Assembly (NCBI GenBank): GCA_900696645.1
Contig: CAADGV010000043.1
Coordinates: forward strand, 66,848 to 130,847
Reading direction: 5' to 3'
Source of the DNA: an uncultured Chlorobiota bacterium
GTDB lineage: Bacteria; Bacteroidota; Ignavibacteria; UBA10030; UBA6906
DNA: 64,000 nt
Shown piece by piece: positions 10,470-57,068 of this stretch (position 1 is its first letter; every line of letters starts with the position of its first letter). The translations under genes were made by a program, and so were the position numbers. The notes under the pieces were generated by a model. That model made no database searches. It was not told the origin of the DNA and saw only the letters and a list, made by a program, of their open reading frames with translations.

Positions 10470-11579
10470 TCACACTGAGTTCTCGTTTAGCCCCGGGCTC
10501 GTTTCATTCGTAAGCTCGAGCGGCACTATTGTTCCATTCGAGAGTTTCAGATTGATTGCCGTAATCTCGACCGAGAAGAATGCCGAGGTATCGGTCAATA
10601 CAGGATCCAGCCGTGCAGACCCGGTTTGCTCGCGCAATGGTTTCTTTTGATGATACGGCCGCCGGGCAACGACAGCCCGTCTGCTGTATTGCGTGGAAAC
10701 CACAGAACTCAATGTGCTCTTTTCCGCCCGATTTGTTTCCGTTCCGAACACGAGTTGGTATGGCGGACCGGTAACATCTGTTCCCGCCATGCGTGTTGAT
10801 GCAAGCGGACCGTTAGACCCGGCAATGACAAGATTCGGATGGATCAATGACTCATATGCTTCGGTTACTGTCCATTCCTCACCCGCGCTTTCAGCTTTGT
10901 ACGTGCTCGATCCGTCATCCCATGCACAGACTATGTTCCCTGAAGATAAGTTGCTGACCGTCGGACGTGAGAAATCGACAGCAGGGGAATTACTAACGAA
11001 TTCATGAGCCTCTTCCCATTTGTCATCGTGCCAGAGTTGGTACATTACTCTCTGTTGCTGCTCTTGCTGTGGGTTGGATGCTTCCCATACAACATGGGCT
11101 TCGCCTGGACTGTTCGACGTATTGGCGCTTACCTGTGAGGAGCGCGACAGCGGGGCAACACTCGCCGGTACGACTTCATCAACCGAACCGACGTAGTCGA
11201 TGATTTTGACATTCTGCCTGTTGTCATACGTCAGAAAGAAATTCGCATCGCTAACGCCGGAAACGCTCGGGCTCAAATAACCGGAGTACAGCATCTCCTC
11301 ACCAGCCCATTCCCAGTCGCCATTCTCCGGATACGCGAAATTCATCCATAAACCTCCCGTGCCTTCCCAAAAGGCATACAGCCACGGACCGCCGAAATAA
11401 TCGACACGCGTGATGACGGGTCTCGTGTCAATATTGGTGCTGATTGACGTCGAGTTAAGTTGAACTGAGGACGAAATTCCGGCCTCCGGAAACGGCGGTA
11501 TGGTAAACATGATTTGGTAATTGCCGCCGGACTGCTTCCGGTACACGGCATACAAGTCTGTATCGCACGGATCATTCAA
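10470..11579 (-). CDS. Hypothetical protein, N-terminus unresolved (TTG start in ORF track; possibly a 5'-truncated or frameshifted gene)
   Basis: The ORF begins with TTG at 11577-11579, not ATG. The same frame stays open upstream to a stop at 11757-11759 and encodes protein-like sequence (...AWWYDTRFTNSGATASAPSIALWTECVTSSP). No signal peptide, and no ATG/GTG/TTG in that stretch. Confidence 0.4.
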   Translation of the reverse strand: MNDPCDTDLYAVYRKQSGGNYQIMFTIPPFPEAGISSSVQLNSTSISTNIDTRPVITRVDYFGGPWLYAFWEGTGGLWMNFAYPENGDWEWAGEEMLYSGYLSPSVSGVSDANFFLTYDNRQNVKIIDYVGSVDEVVPASVAPLSRSSQVSANTSNSPGEAHVVWEASNPQQEQQQRVMYQLWHDDKWEEAHEFVSNSPAVDFSRPTVSNLSSGNIVCAWDDGSSTYKAESAGEEWTVTEAYESLIHPNLVIAGSNGPLASTRMAGTDVTGPPYQLVFGTETNRAEKSTLSSVVSTQYSRRAVVARRPYHQKKPLREQTGSARLDPVLTDTSAFFSVEITAINLKLSNGTIVPLELTNETSPGLNENSV

Positions 11580-11831
11580 AGGGCTGCTTGTGACGCACTC
11601 AGTCCAAAGGGCAATGGACGGCGCGCTCGCTGTGGCGCCACTGTTGGTGAAGCGTGTATCATACCACCATGCCGCTCCGTTGTCGAACGAAACATTCCAC
11701 CAAAGTTCACCCGCGCTGGGATAGGCAAGGGCATACAGCTCCTCTCCGTGGGTTCCTCACAGCATTGGGGCAGTTTGTTCTGGTTCTTCTATGCCCTTGA
11801 TGTTTACCCTCCTTTCACGTCTTGTTCTTGT

Positions 11832-13157
11832 TCATCTTCGACCAACAAGAGCCATTCCGCGACTTCCTAACCACCCTACAGCAACGATCATGTTCCCTTT
11901 TGCCGCAACTGAATGGTAAAGCCCCGAGCCTAACCAGATTTCGGGATACACGTGCCAACGTACTCCATTGAAGTGCCCGGCAAACCTGAAGTCTCCGACC
12001 ACAAAGATATCATTGGCTGCTGTTCCACGTATGCTGTTCGTGTAAATCAGCGGCAATTGTTGCTCCGTCCAAGAGTTCCCCCGTTGAATGGCAAAAACGC
12101 CTCCGCCCGAAGTGTAAACTCGTGAATTCAAGTTGAACCAAACTGAGTGGATTCTTCTAGTTTGCATAGGCCAGGCGAGAGAATCGAGAACCCCATGCTG
12201 ATTGATTCGCAGAAGTTTCTTTTCACCTCCTTCGTACTTGTTCGATGCAGCTACCAGTATCTGGTTTTCTCCCATCCATCGATTGTTTCCACCCCACACA
12301 TCATTGAGCGATACCGTCGTCCCGCTCTCCAACTGCCGCCACGTCGTACCTGATTTATGTACGATGAAGCCATTGTTGCCAACAAACCAGAGGTCATCCG
12401 AATTGCTTCCCCAAATCTTACTTGCACTCCCCACGCCTTGTACGCCGGCATGTTCTGTCCAGTTGGCTCCGTCAAAATGTTGCGCAGTGCCTGCCGCAAC
12501 CCATATATCGTCAGGGCCAAATGCGAAGATCGCCCGGATAGGCGTGAAGAGGAAGAACTCCGGGCCGCAATTGGGATAATACAAACGGCAATCAAAAAGC
12601 CGCCGCATTAACTCCCATCGCTGACCGTTCCACCGCGCGATGTTAAACGGAGGATTAACCCAGTTACCCGAAGAATCCCGTTTCCAGATTTCCCCTACTG
12701 CATACACCAACGTATCGTTGATGATCGCTACGTCGTACAGCACGCTGCTGCCACCATCTCCCAACGTATCTACCTGCCATGTGAAGTTGTGACTCGTTGT
12801 GTCCATCGTCGTCAGTTGCACGGCTGCGCTTGTCTCAATCACGCTTGAGTCACTATCAAGCTTTTGCAGTTGGTACGTGTAGGTGCGGTTGGGGAGTAAA
12901 CCCTCGTCAACAAGCAGAGAGTCAAAGGAAATCAGTCGAAGAGTCTGTTTAGTTTGTGGAGTCGGGCCAAGCAATACGAGGCGGACTGTGGCGGGTACTT
13001 CAGTTGTGCTTGCCGTTAACCAGGCCTCCGTGCAACTCGCGTCTTCGGCTTTGAATGCTATTGTTGCCTGTTGCGGCGGCGGTGGCAGAACGGGGGGATC
13101 TTTTTTGCAACTGAATGCAAGAGCAAAACAAATCGGGATCAGCAGATAGTTCTTCAT
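11832..13157 (-). CDS. Lipoprotein with Fn3-like domain and beta-propeller-like repeats
   Basis: MKNYLLIPICFALAFSCKK lipobox; strong Shine-Dalgarno GGAGGAG 6 nt upstream; repeated DIWVAAG / DLWFVGNNG / IFVVGD blades; ends in TGA. Confidence 0.65.
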   Translation of the reverse strand: MKNYLLIPICFALAFSCKKDPPVLPPPPQQATIAFKAEDASCTEAWLTASTTEVPATVRLVLLGPTPQTKQTLRLISFDSLLVDEGLLPNRTYTYQLQKLDSDSSVIETSAAVQLTTMDTTSHNFTWQVDTLGDGGSSVLYDVAIINDTLVYAVGEIWKRDSSGNWVNPPFNIARWNGQRWELMRRLFDCRLYYPNCGPEFFLFTPIRAIFAFGPDDIWVAAGTAQHFDGANWTEHAGVQGVGSASKIWGSNSDDLWFVGNNGFIVHKSGTTWRQLESGTTVSLNDVWGGNNRWMGENQILVAASNKYEGGEKKLLRINQHGVLDSLAWPMQTRRIHSVWFNLNSRVYTSGGGVFAIQRGNSWTEQQLPLIYTNSIRGTAANDIFVVGDFRFAGHFNGVRWHVYPEIWLGSGLYHSVAAKGNMIVAVGWLGSRGMALVGRR

Positions 13158-13190
13158 AGTCTCCTCCGCTTAAGAGAAAAACTTTCTATT

Positions 13191-13300
13191 ATGAGATGAG
13201 ATGAGATGAGATGAGATGAGATGAGATGAGATGAGATGAGATGAGATGAGATGAGATGAGATGAGATGAGATGAGATGAGATGAGATGAGATGAGATGAG
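13191..13300. repeat. Perfect pentanucleotide microsatellite (ATGAG)22 (CTCAT on the gene strand) in the promoter / 5' region of the lipoprotein gene
   Basis: Seen directly: 110 bp of uninterrupted ATGAG units, 34-144 nt upstream of the ATG at 13157, just upstream of the Shine-Dalgarno sequence. Confidence 0.95.
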
Positions 13301-13586
13301 ACATCTTTCCAAGGTGAAGCTACAACCCTGTCGCCACGCCATCCCACAATCTCATCCAAGTCAAAGAACAACTAAACCAAAGTGAGCAAGCTTGGAACAT
13401 CTTCGACTGGCCGCAATATAACATCATCGCAGCAAGAAGTCAAGAATAATCGTAAGAAAAGGCGAAAGAGAATTGCAGTTTGGTGAGTGGCACTACGTCG
13501 TATCGCGTGTTGCGGTGTTCAAGGACAACCTACTGACAACGAAGGGGCCAAGAGATAAATTCAAGGAGAGGAATTGTCGAGGGAAC

Positions 13587-14054
13587 CTACAGAAGGAGAA
13601 ATTCCTTCAACTCTTCAAACGACGAGAAGATCAGCGTCGTACATCCCAACACCCACCCGGGAATTTCTGTGTACGGCATTGCCGTAACCATGTAGACGGG
13701 TTTGCCGAAGTATTTCGCCATCGTCAACTCTCCTTTTGTGCCGGCGCCGCGCATCGCGGAATCATCCCAATAACAAATCACTAACTCCGAACGTTCGGCA
13801 ATCTCCTTGCAGTCGATTTCAACAAGCTTCGCAACAATAGCAGCGTACGTGACGATGTCTTTTTCCTTGAGGGCACGAATATCAATATGGGGATAATTGC
13901 GGGCAAAGAAGCGGTCGCTTTCGACGTTGGGATTGAAGACCCTGCACTTGAGTCTTTCTTCGAGCCAATCGTGCATCTCCTGCCTCCAGTCACGCCCTTC
14001 ATTCTCCGCGTATTCCATCCCACCGGAAAGATAGACATGTGTGAAGTTCGTCAT
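13587..14054 (-). CDS. Nucleoside 2-deoxyribosyltransferase-like (Rossmann-like) protein
   Basis: VYLSGGMEY N-terminus, acidic residue pattern and size fit the NDT-like/YtoQ-like fold; weak call. Confidence 0.35.
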   Translation of the reverse strand: MTNFTHVYLSGGMEYAENEGRDWRQEMHDWLEERLKCRVFNPNVESDRFFARNYPHIDIRALKEKDIVTYAAIVAKLVEIDCKEIAERSELVICYWDDSAMRGAGTKGELTMAKYFGKPVYMVTAMPYTEIPGWVLGCTTLIFSSFEELKEFLLL

Positions 14055-55979: not shown

Positions 55980-56825
55980 TCAGCGCCGTTCGGGGGCGAA
56001 GGCCGGACGCCATTCCAATCCGCTCGCCGTTTCCATCAGTTGCGTCAGGCGTGAGATGAATCGTGCCATCGGCGCCCCGTCCACCACGTCATGATCCATC
56101 AGGATTGTTAGATTCAGTATCTCCCGTATCTTGACTTCATTCTGAACCACCCAGGGCTTTTTCAGCACAGAGCCGACGCCAACGCTCAAGTTGTGGTAGG
56201 ATTTGTGAATGAACCAGCCGGGAAGGCCGCGTTTATTGCCGATGGAAGTAAGAATGACTGTACCCATCAGCTTCTTTCGCAGCAGCGGACGGGAGAGAAT
56301 GTGCTTCATCACAAGCCGGCGAATTACTGCGGGAAGCAGGTAGTACAACTTCATCTGCAATGCACTGCTCCCTTCGGCAAGAACGTAATCTCCCTCGTTG
56401 CGGATATCTTGGCTCTTGGCGGCTTCGATCTCGCGATGGATTTCAGCCATCGCCTTTTTGTCGGCGCGTTTGATAACGACGGGAAGCGGTACAGGCTTTC
56501 CATCAACTTCTTTCTCCACGATGACGGCAATATCAATGTCGTCAAAGACGATAAGTTTCCGTTTGTTGCGATGCAGAAGGGCGTGAACCTCCTTGTGCTC
56601 ACTGATTGCGGTAGCTATCGTCTTGATGAGCCACGAAGTGAACGAAACCGCAACCCCGGATTCCCGCCTCAACGTACGAAGCCGGCTTCGCGCATCGGTC
56701 ACATCAATTTCCAGCAAACCGGCGATGTGATGTTTCGTTCGGGCAATTCGTCCGAGATCAATCGTTCCTATGCGGGACTTCGGGAAGTCAACGACGGAGT
56801 AGGGATGCTCGTTCGCGTGTTTCAT
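55980..56825 (-). CDS. Stand-alone 2-oxoacid-dehydrogenase E2-type acyltransferase catalytic domain protein
   Basis: C-terminal ILMDHDVVDGAPMARF matches the E2 catalytic DHR..DG motif; no lipoyl or E3-binding domains. Confidence 0.55.
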   Translation of the reverse strand: MKHANEHPYSVVDFPKSRIGTIDLGRIARTKHHIAGLLEIDVTDARSRLRTLRRESGVAVSFTSWLIKTIATAISEHKEVHALLHRNKRKLIVFDDIDIAVIVEKEVDGKPVPLPVVIKRADKKAMAEIHREIEAAKSQDIRNEGDYVLAEGSSALQMKLYYLLPAVIRRLVMKHILSRPLLRKKLMGTVILTSIGNKRGLPGWFIHKSYHNLSVGVGSVLKKPWVVQNEVKIREILNLTILMDHDVVDGAPMARFISRLTQLMETASGLEWRPAFAPERR

Positions 56826-56925: not shown

Positions 56926-56953
56926 TGAGGATGAGGATGAGGATGAGGATGAG
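56926..56953. repeat. Hexanucleotide repeat (GAGGAT) about 4.7 copies
   Basis: Seen directly in the divergent intergenic region between the E2-like gene and higB. Confidence 0.9.
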
Positions 56954-57068
56954 GTGCATGGGAATCTTCTATATGGTAGCAAATTTCAGCCTATGCAATA
57001 GAGGACGCTAAACTCATTTTGGTTTAGTGATGAAATCGTAGAGTTATAGAAGCGCAGATGAAGAGCTT

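Follow-up and report, generated by a model that had tools for sequence, protein, structure and literature searches.

A length-polymorphic pentanucleotide microsatellite in the predicted 5' leader of a lipoprotein gene from an uncultured Ignavibacteria-group bacterium

Contig CAADGV010000043.1 (assembly GCA_900696645.1) of an uncultured environmental Ignavibacteria-group bacterium, represented by metagenome assemblies only, contains, within the 64,000-nt stretch of DNA analyzed here and referred to as the window, a gene for a 441-amino acid (aa) lipoprotein (11832-13157, minus strand, taken from the list of open reading frames, ORFs), which is preceded by a perfect pentanucleotide microsatellite reading (CTCAT)22.2 on the strand of the gene and (ATGAG)n on the plus strand (13191-13301). 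The product of this gene begins with MKNYLLIPICFALAFSCKK, a lipoprotein signal peptide with the lipobox AFSC and Cys17. Tandem Repeats Finder described the tract as an array with a period of 5, the unit ATGAG, 22.2 copies, 100% matches and no indels, and identified it as the single outstanding array in the window. The 110-bp (ATGAG)22 repeat that had been reported in a first-pass annotation of this DNA is thus real and directly visible in the sequence, and its location 34-144 nt ahead of the ATG at 13157 had been given exactly, while the interval assigned to it (13159-13300) also takes in the 32 nt that separate the start codon from the tract, which begins only at 13191. On the minus strand the (CTCAT)n array is followed by AATAGAAAGTTTTTCTCTTAAGC, the Shine-Dalgarno sequence GGAGGAG (13161-13167), the trinucleotide ACT and the ATG, with 33 nt between the end of the tract and the start codon. 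The Shine-Dalgarno sequence, located 3 nt upstream of the ATG, therefore sits 23 nt downstream of the tract and, contrary to the first-pass annotation, does not adjoin it directly. When a 15-mer probe of three units was searched in the window with one mismatch allowed, all 20 matches fell inside 13191-13300, compared to a chance expectation of 0.01 (100 shuffles), which shows that the tract far exceeds what chance would give and has no second copy in the 64 kb. Contingency loci are characterized by a pure short-unit tandem repeat that is long enough for instability, and the 22.2 perfect units (111 nt) of the array have this property; the tract is among the longest pure pentanucleotide tracts that one would expect in a bacterial chromosome. 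As RNA, the (CTCAT)n tract would be free of G and consist of 40% C, 40% U and 20% A.

The tract lies outside the lipoprotein coding sequence, because an in-frame TAA is located 15 nt upstream of the ATG at 13157, where the signal peptide starts, and an N-terminal extension is thereby excluded. Frameshift switching of the opa type depends on a repeat inside the ORF with a unit length that is not divisible by three, whereas here the in-frame TAA separates the tract from the gene. Since the repeat unit contains no stop codon in any sense frame, the (LISSH)n readings through the tract are by-products of the repeat; the first-pass annotation had correctly treated them as artefacts but counted two such entries in the ORF list instead of three. 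The longest of them, a 62-codon upstream ORF (ATG at 13342 to TGA at 13154; 13154-13342, minus strand), runs through the tract and ends with an ATGA on the lipoprotein start. Such an arrangement could in principle allow translational coupling, in which unit changes would shift the stop codon 13 or 32 nt upstream and create three states, and this idea is consistent with the ATGA overlap in the window, with the stops of the other two frames at 13170 and 13189, and with the same upstream sequence in L099 and L101 (contigs used for comparison are designated by L numbers). However, in L001, L012 and L013 the start is a GTG that is followed by an in-frame TAG, no Shine-Dalgarno sequence precedes the ATG at 13342 while the lipoprotein gene has a strong one of its own, and with three sense frames open through the tract by construction one overlap is expected by chance. 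We therefore rejected coupling through this unconserved ORF, which is destroyed in L001, L012 and L013, as highly improbable, and judged the ORF to be non-functional.

The number of repeat units differs between related assemblies. Independent assemblies were found by exact-sequence look-up of the lipoprotein and its cluster mates, and the upstream 155-aa gene gave access to the other side of the tract; all unit counts are assembly consensus values. Compared to the 22.2 units of the window, two contigs of GCA_013328875.1 (L002 and L099), which flank one break from opposite sides, carry at least 19.8 units each (99 nt of repeat), and a contig of GCA_013328955.1 that ends in the repeat (L101) carries at least 19.4 units (97 nt). 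Shorter tracts of 11.6 units (58 nt) and 9.6 units were found in the metagenome-assembled genomes (MAGs) L012 and L013, respectively, and an array of only 5.6 units (28 nt), safely below the k-mer size, in L001. Because the contigs of both GCA_013328875.1 and GCA_013328955.1 end in 97-99 nt of repeat, the long tract is not the artefact of a single assembly. L012 and L013 also show a 10-bp offset in the coordinates of the upstream gene and in the starts of the blastn alignments (2681 and 2691). L001 shares 99.97% identity with the window across the 3315 nt that run downstream from the tract; the figure for L012 and L013 is about 93%. The robust contrast is that between about 6 units and at least 20 units in near-identical backgrounds. 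Variation in unit number among close strains, a second characteristic of contingency loci, is thus found across assembly consensus sequences over a range from 5.6 to 22.2 units. The earlier proposal of a candidate contingency locus is supported by this comparison of orthologous loci, including one with a 99.97% identical flank, and the tract appears to behave as a hypermutable locus. In addition, nine Logan contigs break within the repeat after 24-30 nt, and in eight of these the repeat portion measures exactly 30 nt, as would be expected of a 31-mer graph when a tract exceeds 31 nt. These contigs show that the tract is present in many samples, in which it breaks short-read assemblies at the lipoprotein locus, and carry no information on its length. 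When a metagenome collection was scanned with the tract/flank junction CATCTCATCTCATAATAGA, the five matches were all unrelated chance matches.

The alleles also differ in a second respect. L001, L012 and L013 carry a 54-nt insert, TTTTTGCCAA(A)TAGATTGGCGGAAGCATCTCCCGCCAGACGGATTGGCGGGCA(G/C)G, between a 1.6-unit stub and the main array (L001 51-104, L012 2855-2908 and the equivalent place in L013), which the window lacks. Moreover, the L001 leader upstream of the tract resembles that of L012 and not that of the window. The insert and the L012-like leader of L001 indicate recombination or deletion between repeat blocks besides slippage. Within the insert, GCCAAATAGATTGGC and CCCGCCAGACGGATTGGCGGG represent hairpins, a direct repeat (GATTGGCGG..GCATCTC) occurs in two copies, and a search for it as a dispersed repeat element found no copy elsewhere in the window. 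In L096 (875-1034) we observed a 4.2-copy array of a 38-nt unit with the ends GGCATCTCCCACC...GGCGGGCA, which are similar to those of the insert.

Upstream of the tract, a candidate promoter of the sigma-70 type was identified (13415-13443, minus strand), with the -35 hexamer TTGACT (13443-13438), a 17-nt spacer and a TG-extended -10 hexamer TATATT (13420-13415). This TTGACT-17-TG-TATATT site has 10 of 12 matches to the E. coli sigma-70 consensus, which may not be that of this lineage, and it is the only strong site on the strand of the gene between the upstream gene and the ATG, located 114 nt upstream of the tract. A consensus scan returned no promoter-like site in the 33 nt that separate the tract from the ATG, and the Bacteroides-type motif TAnnTTTG was not seen by eye on the strand of the gene in 13158-13600. 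The candidate promoter is retained in different surroundings. In L105 the spacer sequence has diverged, while both hexamers, the TG and the spacer length of 17 nt are kept, and in L012 and L013, where the same promoter was called, the homology to the window starts only about 20 nt upstream of the -35 hexamer and the upstream neighbor is a different gene on the other strand. The predicted promoter is thus conserved across three sequence contexts, those of the window and L099, of L105, and of L012 and L013, and since it is kept in the latter two it appears to travel with the leader, the tract and the gene as one unit. Transcription would start near position 13408, giving a predicted 5' leader of about 251 nt (13158-13408, minus strand; placed by the promoter position) in which the repeat occupies positions 108-218. 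Since the promoter precedes the tract and none was found from there to the ATG, the repeat would most likely be transcribed and form the G-free (CUCAU)n part of an approximately 250-nt leader. In this leader no intrinsic terminator was found, and Rfam searches with the leaders of the window and of L012 returned only sub-threshold chance matches. A third characteristic of contingency loci is a repeat in the ORF, promoter or 5'-UTR of a gene, typically one for a surface structure, from where the number of units may influence expression. The tract has such a position, as it follows the predicted promoter of the lipoprotein gene and precedes its Shine-Dalgarno sequence.

This arrangement does not agree with the mechanism put forward in the first-pass annotation, according to which each change in unit number would move a promoter element by 5 bp, as the only strong promoter lies upstream of the tract and none downstream of it. 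On/off switching by helical phase is likewise not expected, and any effect would be exerted at the level of the RNA or of elongation and be graded. At 111 nt the tract cannot be a -35/-10 spacer of the kind exemplified by the poly-G of porA or the TA repeats of hif, in which the number of units determines how far apart the two hexamers are, and here the hexamers are only 17 nt apart and located 114 nt upstream of the tract. A control of the nadA type, in which the core promoter is located downstream of the tract and regulator sites flank the latter, would need a promoter in the 33 nt before the ATG, where no promoter-like site occurs. A more general possibility is that spacing matters at the DNA level, either because a promoter lies at or downstream of the tract or because a regulator reaches across it, so that steps of 5 bp, each equal to half a helical turn, would change both distance and phase. 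The (TAAA)n repeat of nadA provides a precedent for such a control (PMC2791445), and the junction ...CTCATAATAG contains the hexamer CATAAT, a 5/6 match to a -10 element that is located 30 nt from the ATG and kept in all alleles. However, the scan registered no promoter-like site there, any -35 element for CATAAT would fall inside the repeat with at most 3/6 matches to TTGACA as read from the sequence, and the periodicity of the repeat would keep the distance to this element constant whatever the number of units. Moreover, a much better and context-conserved promoter is present upstream, and the differences between alleles, 54 nt for the insert and a further 50-85 nt, exceed what a fine tuning of helical phase would involve. 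We consequently regard control by DNA-level spacing as quite unlikely.

Folding predictions for the leader suggest two places where the repeat might pair. In the minimum free energy (MFE) structure, leader positions 52-78 are predicted to pair with positions 123-150, bringing repeat units 4-9 (5-6 units) against the G-rich GGAUGAGAUUGUGGGAUGGCGUGG at 13357-13331. This G-rich leader segment, GGAUGAGAUUGUGGGAUGGCGUGGCGA (13331-13357, minus strand), which is tentatively assigned as complementary to the repeat from the MFE pairing, lies in a stretch of 38 nt with 47% G and is present with four substitutions in L012 and L013. In the same predicted structure the last two repeat units would pair with the Shine-Dalgarno sequence (U208-C216 with G240-A249), and the local hairpin at the Shine-Dalgarno sequence has a predicted energy of -8.2 kcal/mol in the window and of -12.8 kcal/mol in L012. 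With synthetic leaders the predicted pairing probability of the Shine-Dalgarno sequence was approximately 0.5 at 5 or fewer units and 0.79 at 10 or more units, followed by a plateau. We take these predictions as a lead and not as evidence, as they are indistinguishable from what the composition of the leader would give.

The lipoprotein belongs to a multi-copy family, as a genome scan revealed 80 loci, often with several per genome. In the 497 kb around these 80 genes a search for perfect simple repeats of 18 nt or more and 3.5 copies or more gave only six, and five of the six lie in the roughly 260 nt that precede a family gene. These leader repeats are (GTTCCCTC)3.5 in L021, (TCTAC)8 in L032, (CATCT)4.2 in both L035 and L040, and (CAAG)7 in L060. 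The repeats in L035 and L040 have the same unit as the window tract and belong to paralogues in one genome of another species, with proteins that are 39-42% identical to that of the window. In two members of the family the repeat is again preceded by a match to the E. coli promoter consensus, with the order TTGACA-17-TATCTT, (GTTCCCTC)3.5 and gene in L021, and TTGAAT-18-TAAAAT, (TCTAC)8 and gene in L032. The upstream stretches of the family genes make up approximately 4% of the sequence searched, and such a clustering would be improbable even relative to intergenic DNA only (about 0.02 in a rough binomial estimate), with L035 and L040 not being independent of each other. In addition, imperfect short repeats are frequent in the leaders of the family.

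This association of simple repeats with the leaders of the lipoprotein family argues against pure neutrality of the tract, that is, against the view that the perfect repetition of the microsatellite makes it prone to slippage and recombination and that a long leader accommodates it without effect on regulation, so that its polymorphism would reflect mutation pressure only. Several observations are in line with such a neutral tract. Every allele between 5.6 and 22.2 units retains an intact gene with an unchanged Shine-Dalgarno sequence and start codon, the folding analysis gave no energetic signal for a specific leader RNA structure, and beyond about 10 units no further effect on the Shine-Dalgarno sequence is predicted. 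Furthermore, a polymorphic repeat also occurs in the window upstream of a gene of housekeeping type with an acyltransferase domain (see below), which suggests that the organism tolerates such tracts. On the other hand, simple repeats are very rare (6 in 497 kb) and yet concentrated in the leaders of this family in several species and with differing units, and 22 perfect units are far beyond the usual mutation-drift balance in bacteria, judging from what is generally known of the distribution of simple repeats in prokaryotes. Moreover, known leader repeats do affect expression by their length (PMC12721329; PMC7302503). A neutral origin of the polymorphism appears to us possible but rather unlikely.

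The reading that we favor, and to which we give a somewhat better than even chance, is that the tract represents a hypermutable microsatellite in the transcribed 5' leader of the lipoprotein gene, with the number of units tuning expression in a graded way. Slipped-strand mispairing at replication would add or remove CTCAT units, in changes that are presumably frequent and reversible, and deletion or recombination between repeat blocks may have removed the 54-nt spacer that other alleles have kept, resulting in near-identical strains with about 6 to at least 22 units. Because the tract is located outside the ORF and not between the hexamers, these changes would cause neither a frameshift nor a switch in -35/-10 spacing, and mechanisms based on frameshift, spacer length or distal spacing each seem to fail a defining test at this locus. 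The number of units would rather set the length of a G-free, pyrimidine-rich and intrinsically unstructured leader RNA, and a change in leader length would then alter expression gradually, as in a rheostat. This might occur along two routes. Repeat units could pair with the upstream G-rich segment and with the Shine-Dalgarno sequence and thereby influence processing, stability or ribosome access in an hmw-like manner, or Rho could be loaded on the untranslated C-rich RNA in a length-dependent manner.

Several results weigh against a graded control by unit number. The promoter rule applied here is the E. coli sigma-70 consensus, which may not hold for the promoters of this lineage. The predicted fold of the leader is no more stable than that of shuffled sequences (z = 0.24 for the window and -0.88 for L012), and the predicted sequestration of the Shine-Dalgarno sequence needs only two units and reaches its plateau at about 10, so that it cannot separate 10 from 22 units. 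A bias of C over G is not found in the leaders of the family, as the mean (C-G)/(C+G) was -0.009 in 53 leaders compared to -0.019 in controls (p = 0.22). Furthermore, assemblers can distort the consensus counts of MAGs, and the 58 nt of L012 are near the limit of a 55-mer graph and possibly underestimated. Finally, slippage alone did not make the short alleles, which also depart from the window in carrying the 54-nt insert and in substitutions in the leader. The probability that falls beyond the four readings weighed so far, namely graded tuning, neutrality, DNA-level spacing and coupling through the upstream ORF, belongs to other mechanisms that were not formulated.

The second of the two routes can be formulated more specifically. 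Untranslated, unstructured, G-poor and C-rich RNA is the hallmark of Rho utilization (rut) sites, and the (CUCAU)n tract may be regarded as rut-like, because it is free of G, contains 40% C, is unstructured and untranslated, and extends over 110 nt. It could thus represent a length-tunable loading platform for Rho, on which slippage would set the extent of premature termination in the leader, with alleles of 25-50 nt being too short for efficient loading of the Rho hexamer; we consider this an unlikely variant of graded tuning. The YC-binding clefts of Rho (PMC12360218) and the presence of Rho in most species of the FCB group (PMC11347177) are relevant background to such a role. Our literature search found no paper linking simple repeats to Rho loading, the nearest being the Rho-dependent control of the invertible flagellar switch of C. 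difficile (PMC7446863). If true, the Rho variant would amount to a microsatellite-driven Rho attenuator and, together with the leader repeats of the family, to a repeat-controlled repertoire of surface lipoproteins in free-living Ignavibacteria.

To our knowledge, nearly all that is established about repeat contingency loci comes from host-adapted pathogens, among them Haemophilus, Neisseria, Moraxella, Campylobacter and Helicobacter. In the opa genes of Neisseria a (CTCTT)n repeat inside the ORF causes switching by frameshift, and the opa genes resemble the locus described here in having a pyrimidine-rich pentanucleotide by the signal-peptide region of a multi-copy family, which in their case encodes outer-membrane proteins. 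In contrast to opa, where the repeat is part of the ORF, the in-frame TAA parts the tract from the ORF in the window. The closest known system to the lipoprotein tract seems to be the 5'-untranslated region (UTR) rheostat of hmw1A in Haemophilus influenzae. In the hmw1A and hmw2A genes a transcribed 5'-UTR contains 11-63 units of (AUCUUUC)n (PMC12721329). Ten of these units in hmw1A pair with a G-rich arm (almost 50% G) to form a hairpin that is cut by RNase III, and expression falls as the tract is lengthened (PMC12721329). Both systems have a long, pure and pyrimidine-rich repeat without G on the sense strand, which follows a conserved promoter and precedes the start codon of a gene that encodes a surface protein in hmw and a lipoprotein here. 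The leader is transcribed in hmw and most likely so in the window, and both contain a complementary G-rich segment (almost 50% G in hmw and 47% here) that is predicted to pair with several units. Similarly, repeats are found in paralogous genes in both cases, and short-read assemblies break at both. The two systems differ, however, in the length of the unit (7 nt in hmw and 5 nt here) and in the position of the G-rich arm, which is downstream of the tract in hmw and upstream of it here. Moreover, 10 units pair in hmw compared to approximately 5-6 predicted here, in a hairpin no stronger than base composition would give (z = 0.24), and the allele of 5.6 units is shorter than the predicted arm needs. 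The hosts are also different, a pathogen for hmw and an uncultured environmental Ignavibacteria-group bacterium for the lipoprotein tract.

Further systems show partial similarity. In uspA2 of Moraxella catarrhalis, variation in the length of an (AGAT)n repeat of 13-18 units, located 132 bp upstream of the ORF, is reported to cause graded changes in mRNA and no on/off switching (PMC7302503, citing Attia and Hansen 2006). The uspA2 gene shares with the lipoprotein gene a heteropolymeric repeat of similar unit number upstream of the ORF, the product of uspA2 being a surface protein, and differs from it by its purine-rich 4-nt unit and by an effect on expression that has been measured, whereas such an effect is only inferred here. 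In nadA of Neisseria meningitidis the (TAAA)n repeat is located upstream of the -35 element, where it spaces a distal operator and the promoter elements (PMC2791445). Both repeats are intergenic and heteropolymeric, and without any frameshift the one in nadA controls an adhesin-type surface protein and that of the window may control a lipoprotein. Unlike in nadA, however, the best promoter in the window precedes the tract, and no core promoter was found after it. Short tandem repeats in 5' gene regions have also been described from environmental, non-pathogenic bacteria, namely TAACTGA heptamers upstream of start codons in Beggiatoaceae, Cyanobacteria and some Bacteroidetes, for which a post-transcriptional role was proposed (PMC4679880). 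In that case a single heptamer, mostly in 2-6 copies, occurs at many loci a few nt from the start codon and was proposed to represent binding sites, while in the lipoprotein family the units differ between loci and the tract in the window is long and length-polymorphic. On the basis of these comparisons, the tract may best be counted among the intergenic and 5'-UTR repeat rheostats, to which it would add a further case, the phenomenon itself being well known. Among the top-ranked full-text matches of a literature search, none linked repeat contingency loci to Ignavibacteria. If the number of units does tune expression, the locus would represent a case of microsatellite-based bet-hedging in free-living community bacteria, plausibly against phage or grazers, and would provide the 5'-UTR repeat rheostat, which has been described only recently, with an independent second case.

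A Pfam search with the 441-aa lipoprotein and the products of the downstream genes identified no families, and the 1451 homologues of the lipoprotein, from MAGs labelled Ignavibacteria, Ignavibacteriota, Bacteroidota or Chlorobi, are almost all unnamed ('hypothetical'). An AlphaFold model built with 31 homologues (predicted local distance difference test, pLDDT, of 90.6) predicts an immunoglobulin-like beta-sandwich at approximately residues 33-116, followed by a beta-propeller at approximately residues 126-441. The best matches of this model in the PDB are the propellers of Ycf48 (5ojp and 2xbg; E about 1e-10 (8e-11), 12-13% identity). Ycf48 is a seven-bladed propeller, and the match points to a resemblance in fold and not to a functional assignment. 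The residues after the lipobox Cys of the lipoprotein are KKD, a mismatch to the K-(D/E)2 lipoprotein export signal of Bacteroidetes (PMC5080379), while some paralogues of the family carry CKDD or CKDE.

Additional variation was observed among members of this family. The (TCTAC)8 leader is 100% identical between L032 and L108 and shows no variation in length. In L032 (3001-5815) two family paralogues, A and B, are arranged in tandem, while L108 (1501-2811) contains a single gene whose leader and first approximately 400 nt are 100% identical to gene A of L032, and the rest 98% identical to gene B; this gene is either a recombinant (mosaic) or an assembly chimera. In another species with a protein that is 56% identical, the promoter TTGACA...TAGATT in L019 (approximately 2770-2800) contains a run of 12 T in its spacer, and a paralogue in the same genome, L029 (approximately 2810-2835), has 7 T and no clear -35 element. 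The leaders of L019 and L029 share a short conserved ORF or hairpin, ACAGGAGGAnTTATGGCAACC...CTCCTGT, and the T-run may represent a homopolymer-based variation of promoters in the lipoprotein family. C-rich, G-poor leaders had been considered as a family-wide signature of RNA composition and were rejected on the basis of the skew (-0.009 versus -0.019).

The surroundings of the lipoprotein gene are variable on both sides. At the junction 11756/11757, 75 nt downstream of the lipoprotein stop codon, the window lacks a clean segment of 1510 nt that is present in L002 (1534-3043) and L004 (1465-2974), while L003 is collinear with the window (blastn). The downstream gene has its start and about 456 of its codons in this segment and encodes 884 aa in L004 and 1109 aa in L012, the latter with a precomputed match to Por_Secre_tail (type IX secretion). 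Because the window is without the 1510-nt segment and thus without the start of this gene, its ORF at 10470-11579 represents a 3' remnant, and the remnant of the downstream gene as delimited by blastn against L002 and L004 extends over 10470-11756 (minus strand). No direct repeat is visible at the junction. On the upstream side, six of the nine contigs shown (L100, L102-L104, L106 and L107) break at the same base, at approximately 13493 of the window and 94 nt after the stop codon of the 155-aa gene (13587-14054), while L105 continues with a diverged promoter region; this pattern suggests that strains differing from about 13493 onward co-occur in many samples. A comparison of the neighborhood (window 13444-13600 with L012 1406-2700) further showed that the block composed of promoter, leader, repeat and lipoprotein gene comes after the FtsH, 221-aa and 155-aa genes in the window and in L099, and adjoins a divergent epimerase/dehydratase gene and a peptide deformylase gene in L012 and L013. 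In view of these differing neighborhoods, either the lipoprotein block moved or the region was rearranged.

The second polymorphic repeat of the window is (TGAGGA)4.8 at 56926-56954, which reads (CCTCAT)n in the sense of the minus strand and is located about 100 nt upstream of a gene (55980-56825, minus strand) encoding 281 aa with a 2-oxoacid dehydrogenase acyltransferase domain. This repeat comprises 4.8 units in the window compared to 3.8 units in L111 (SRR10580904), with identical flanks, and a further contig, L112, starts inside the (CCTCAT)n array.

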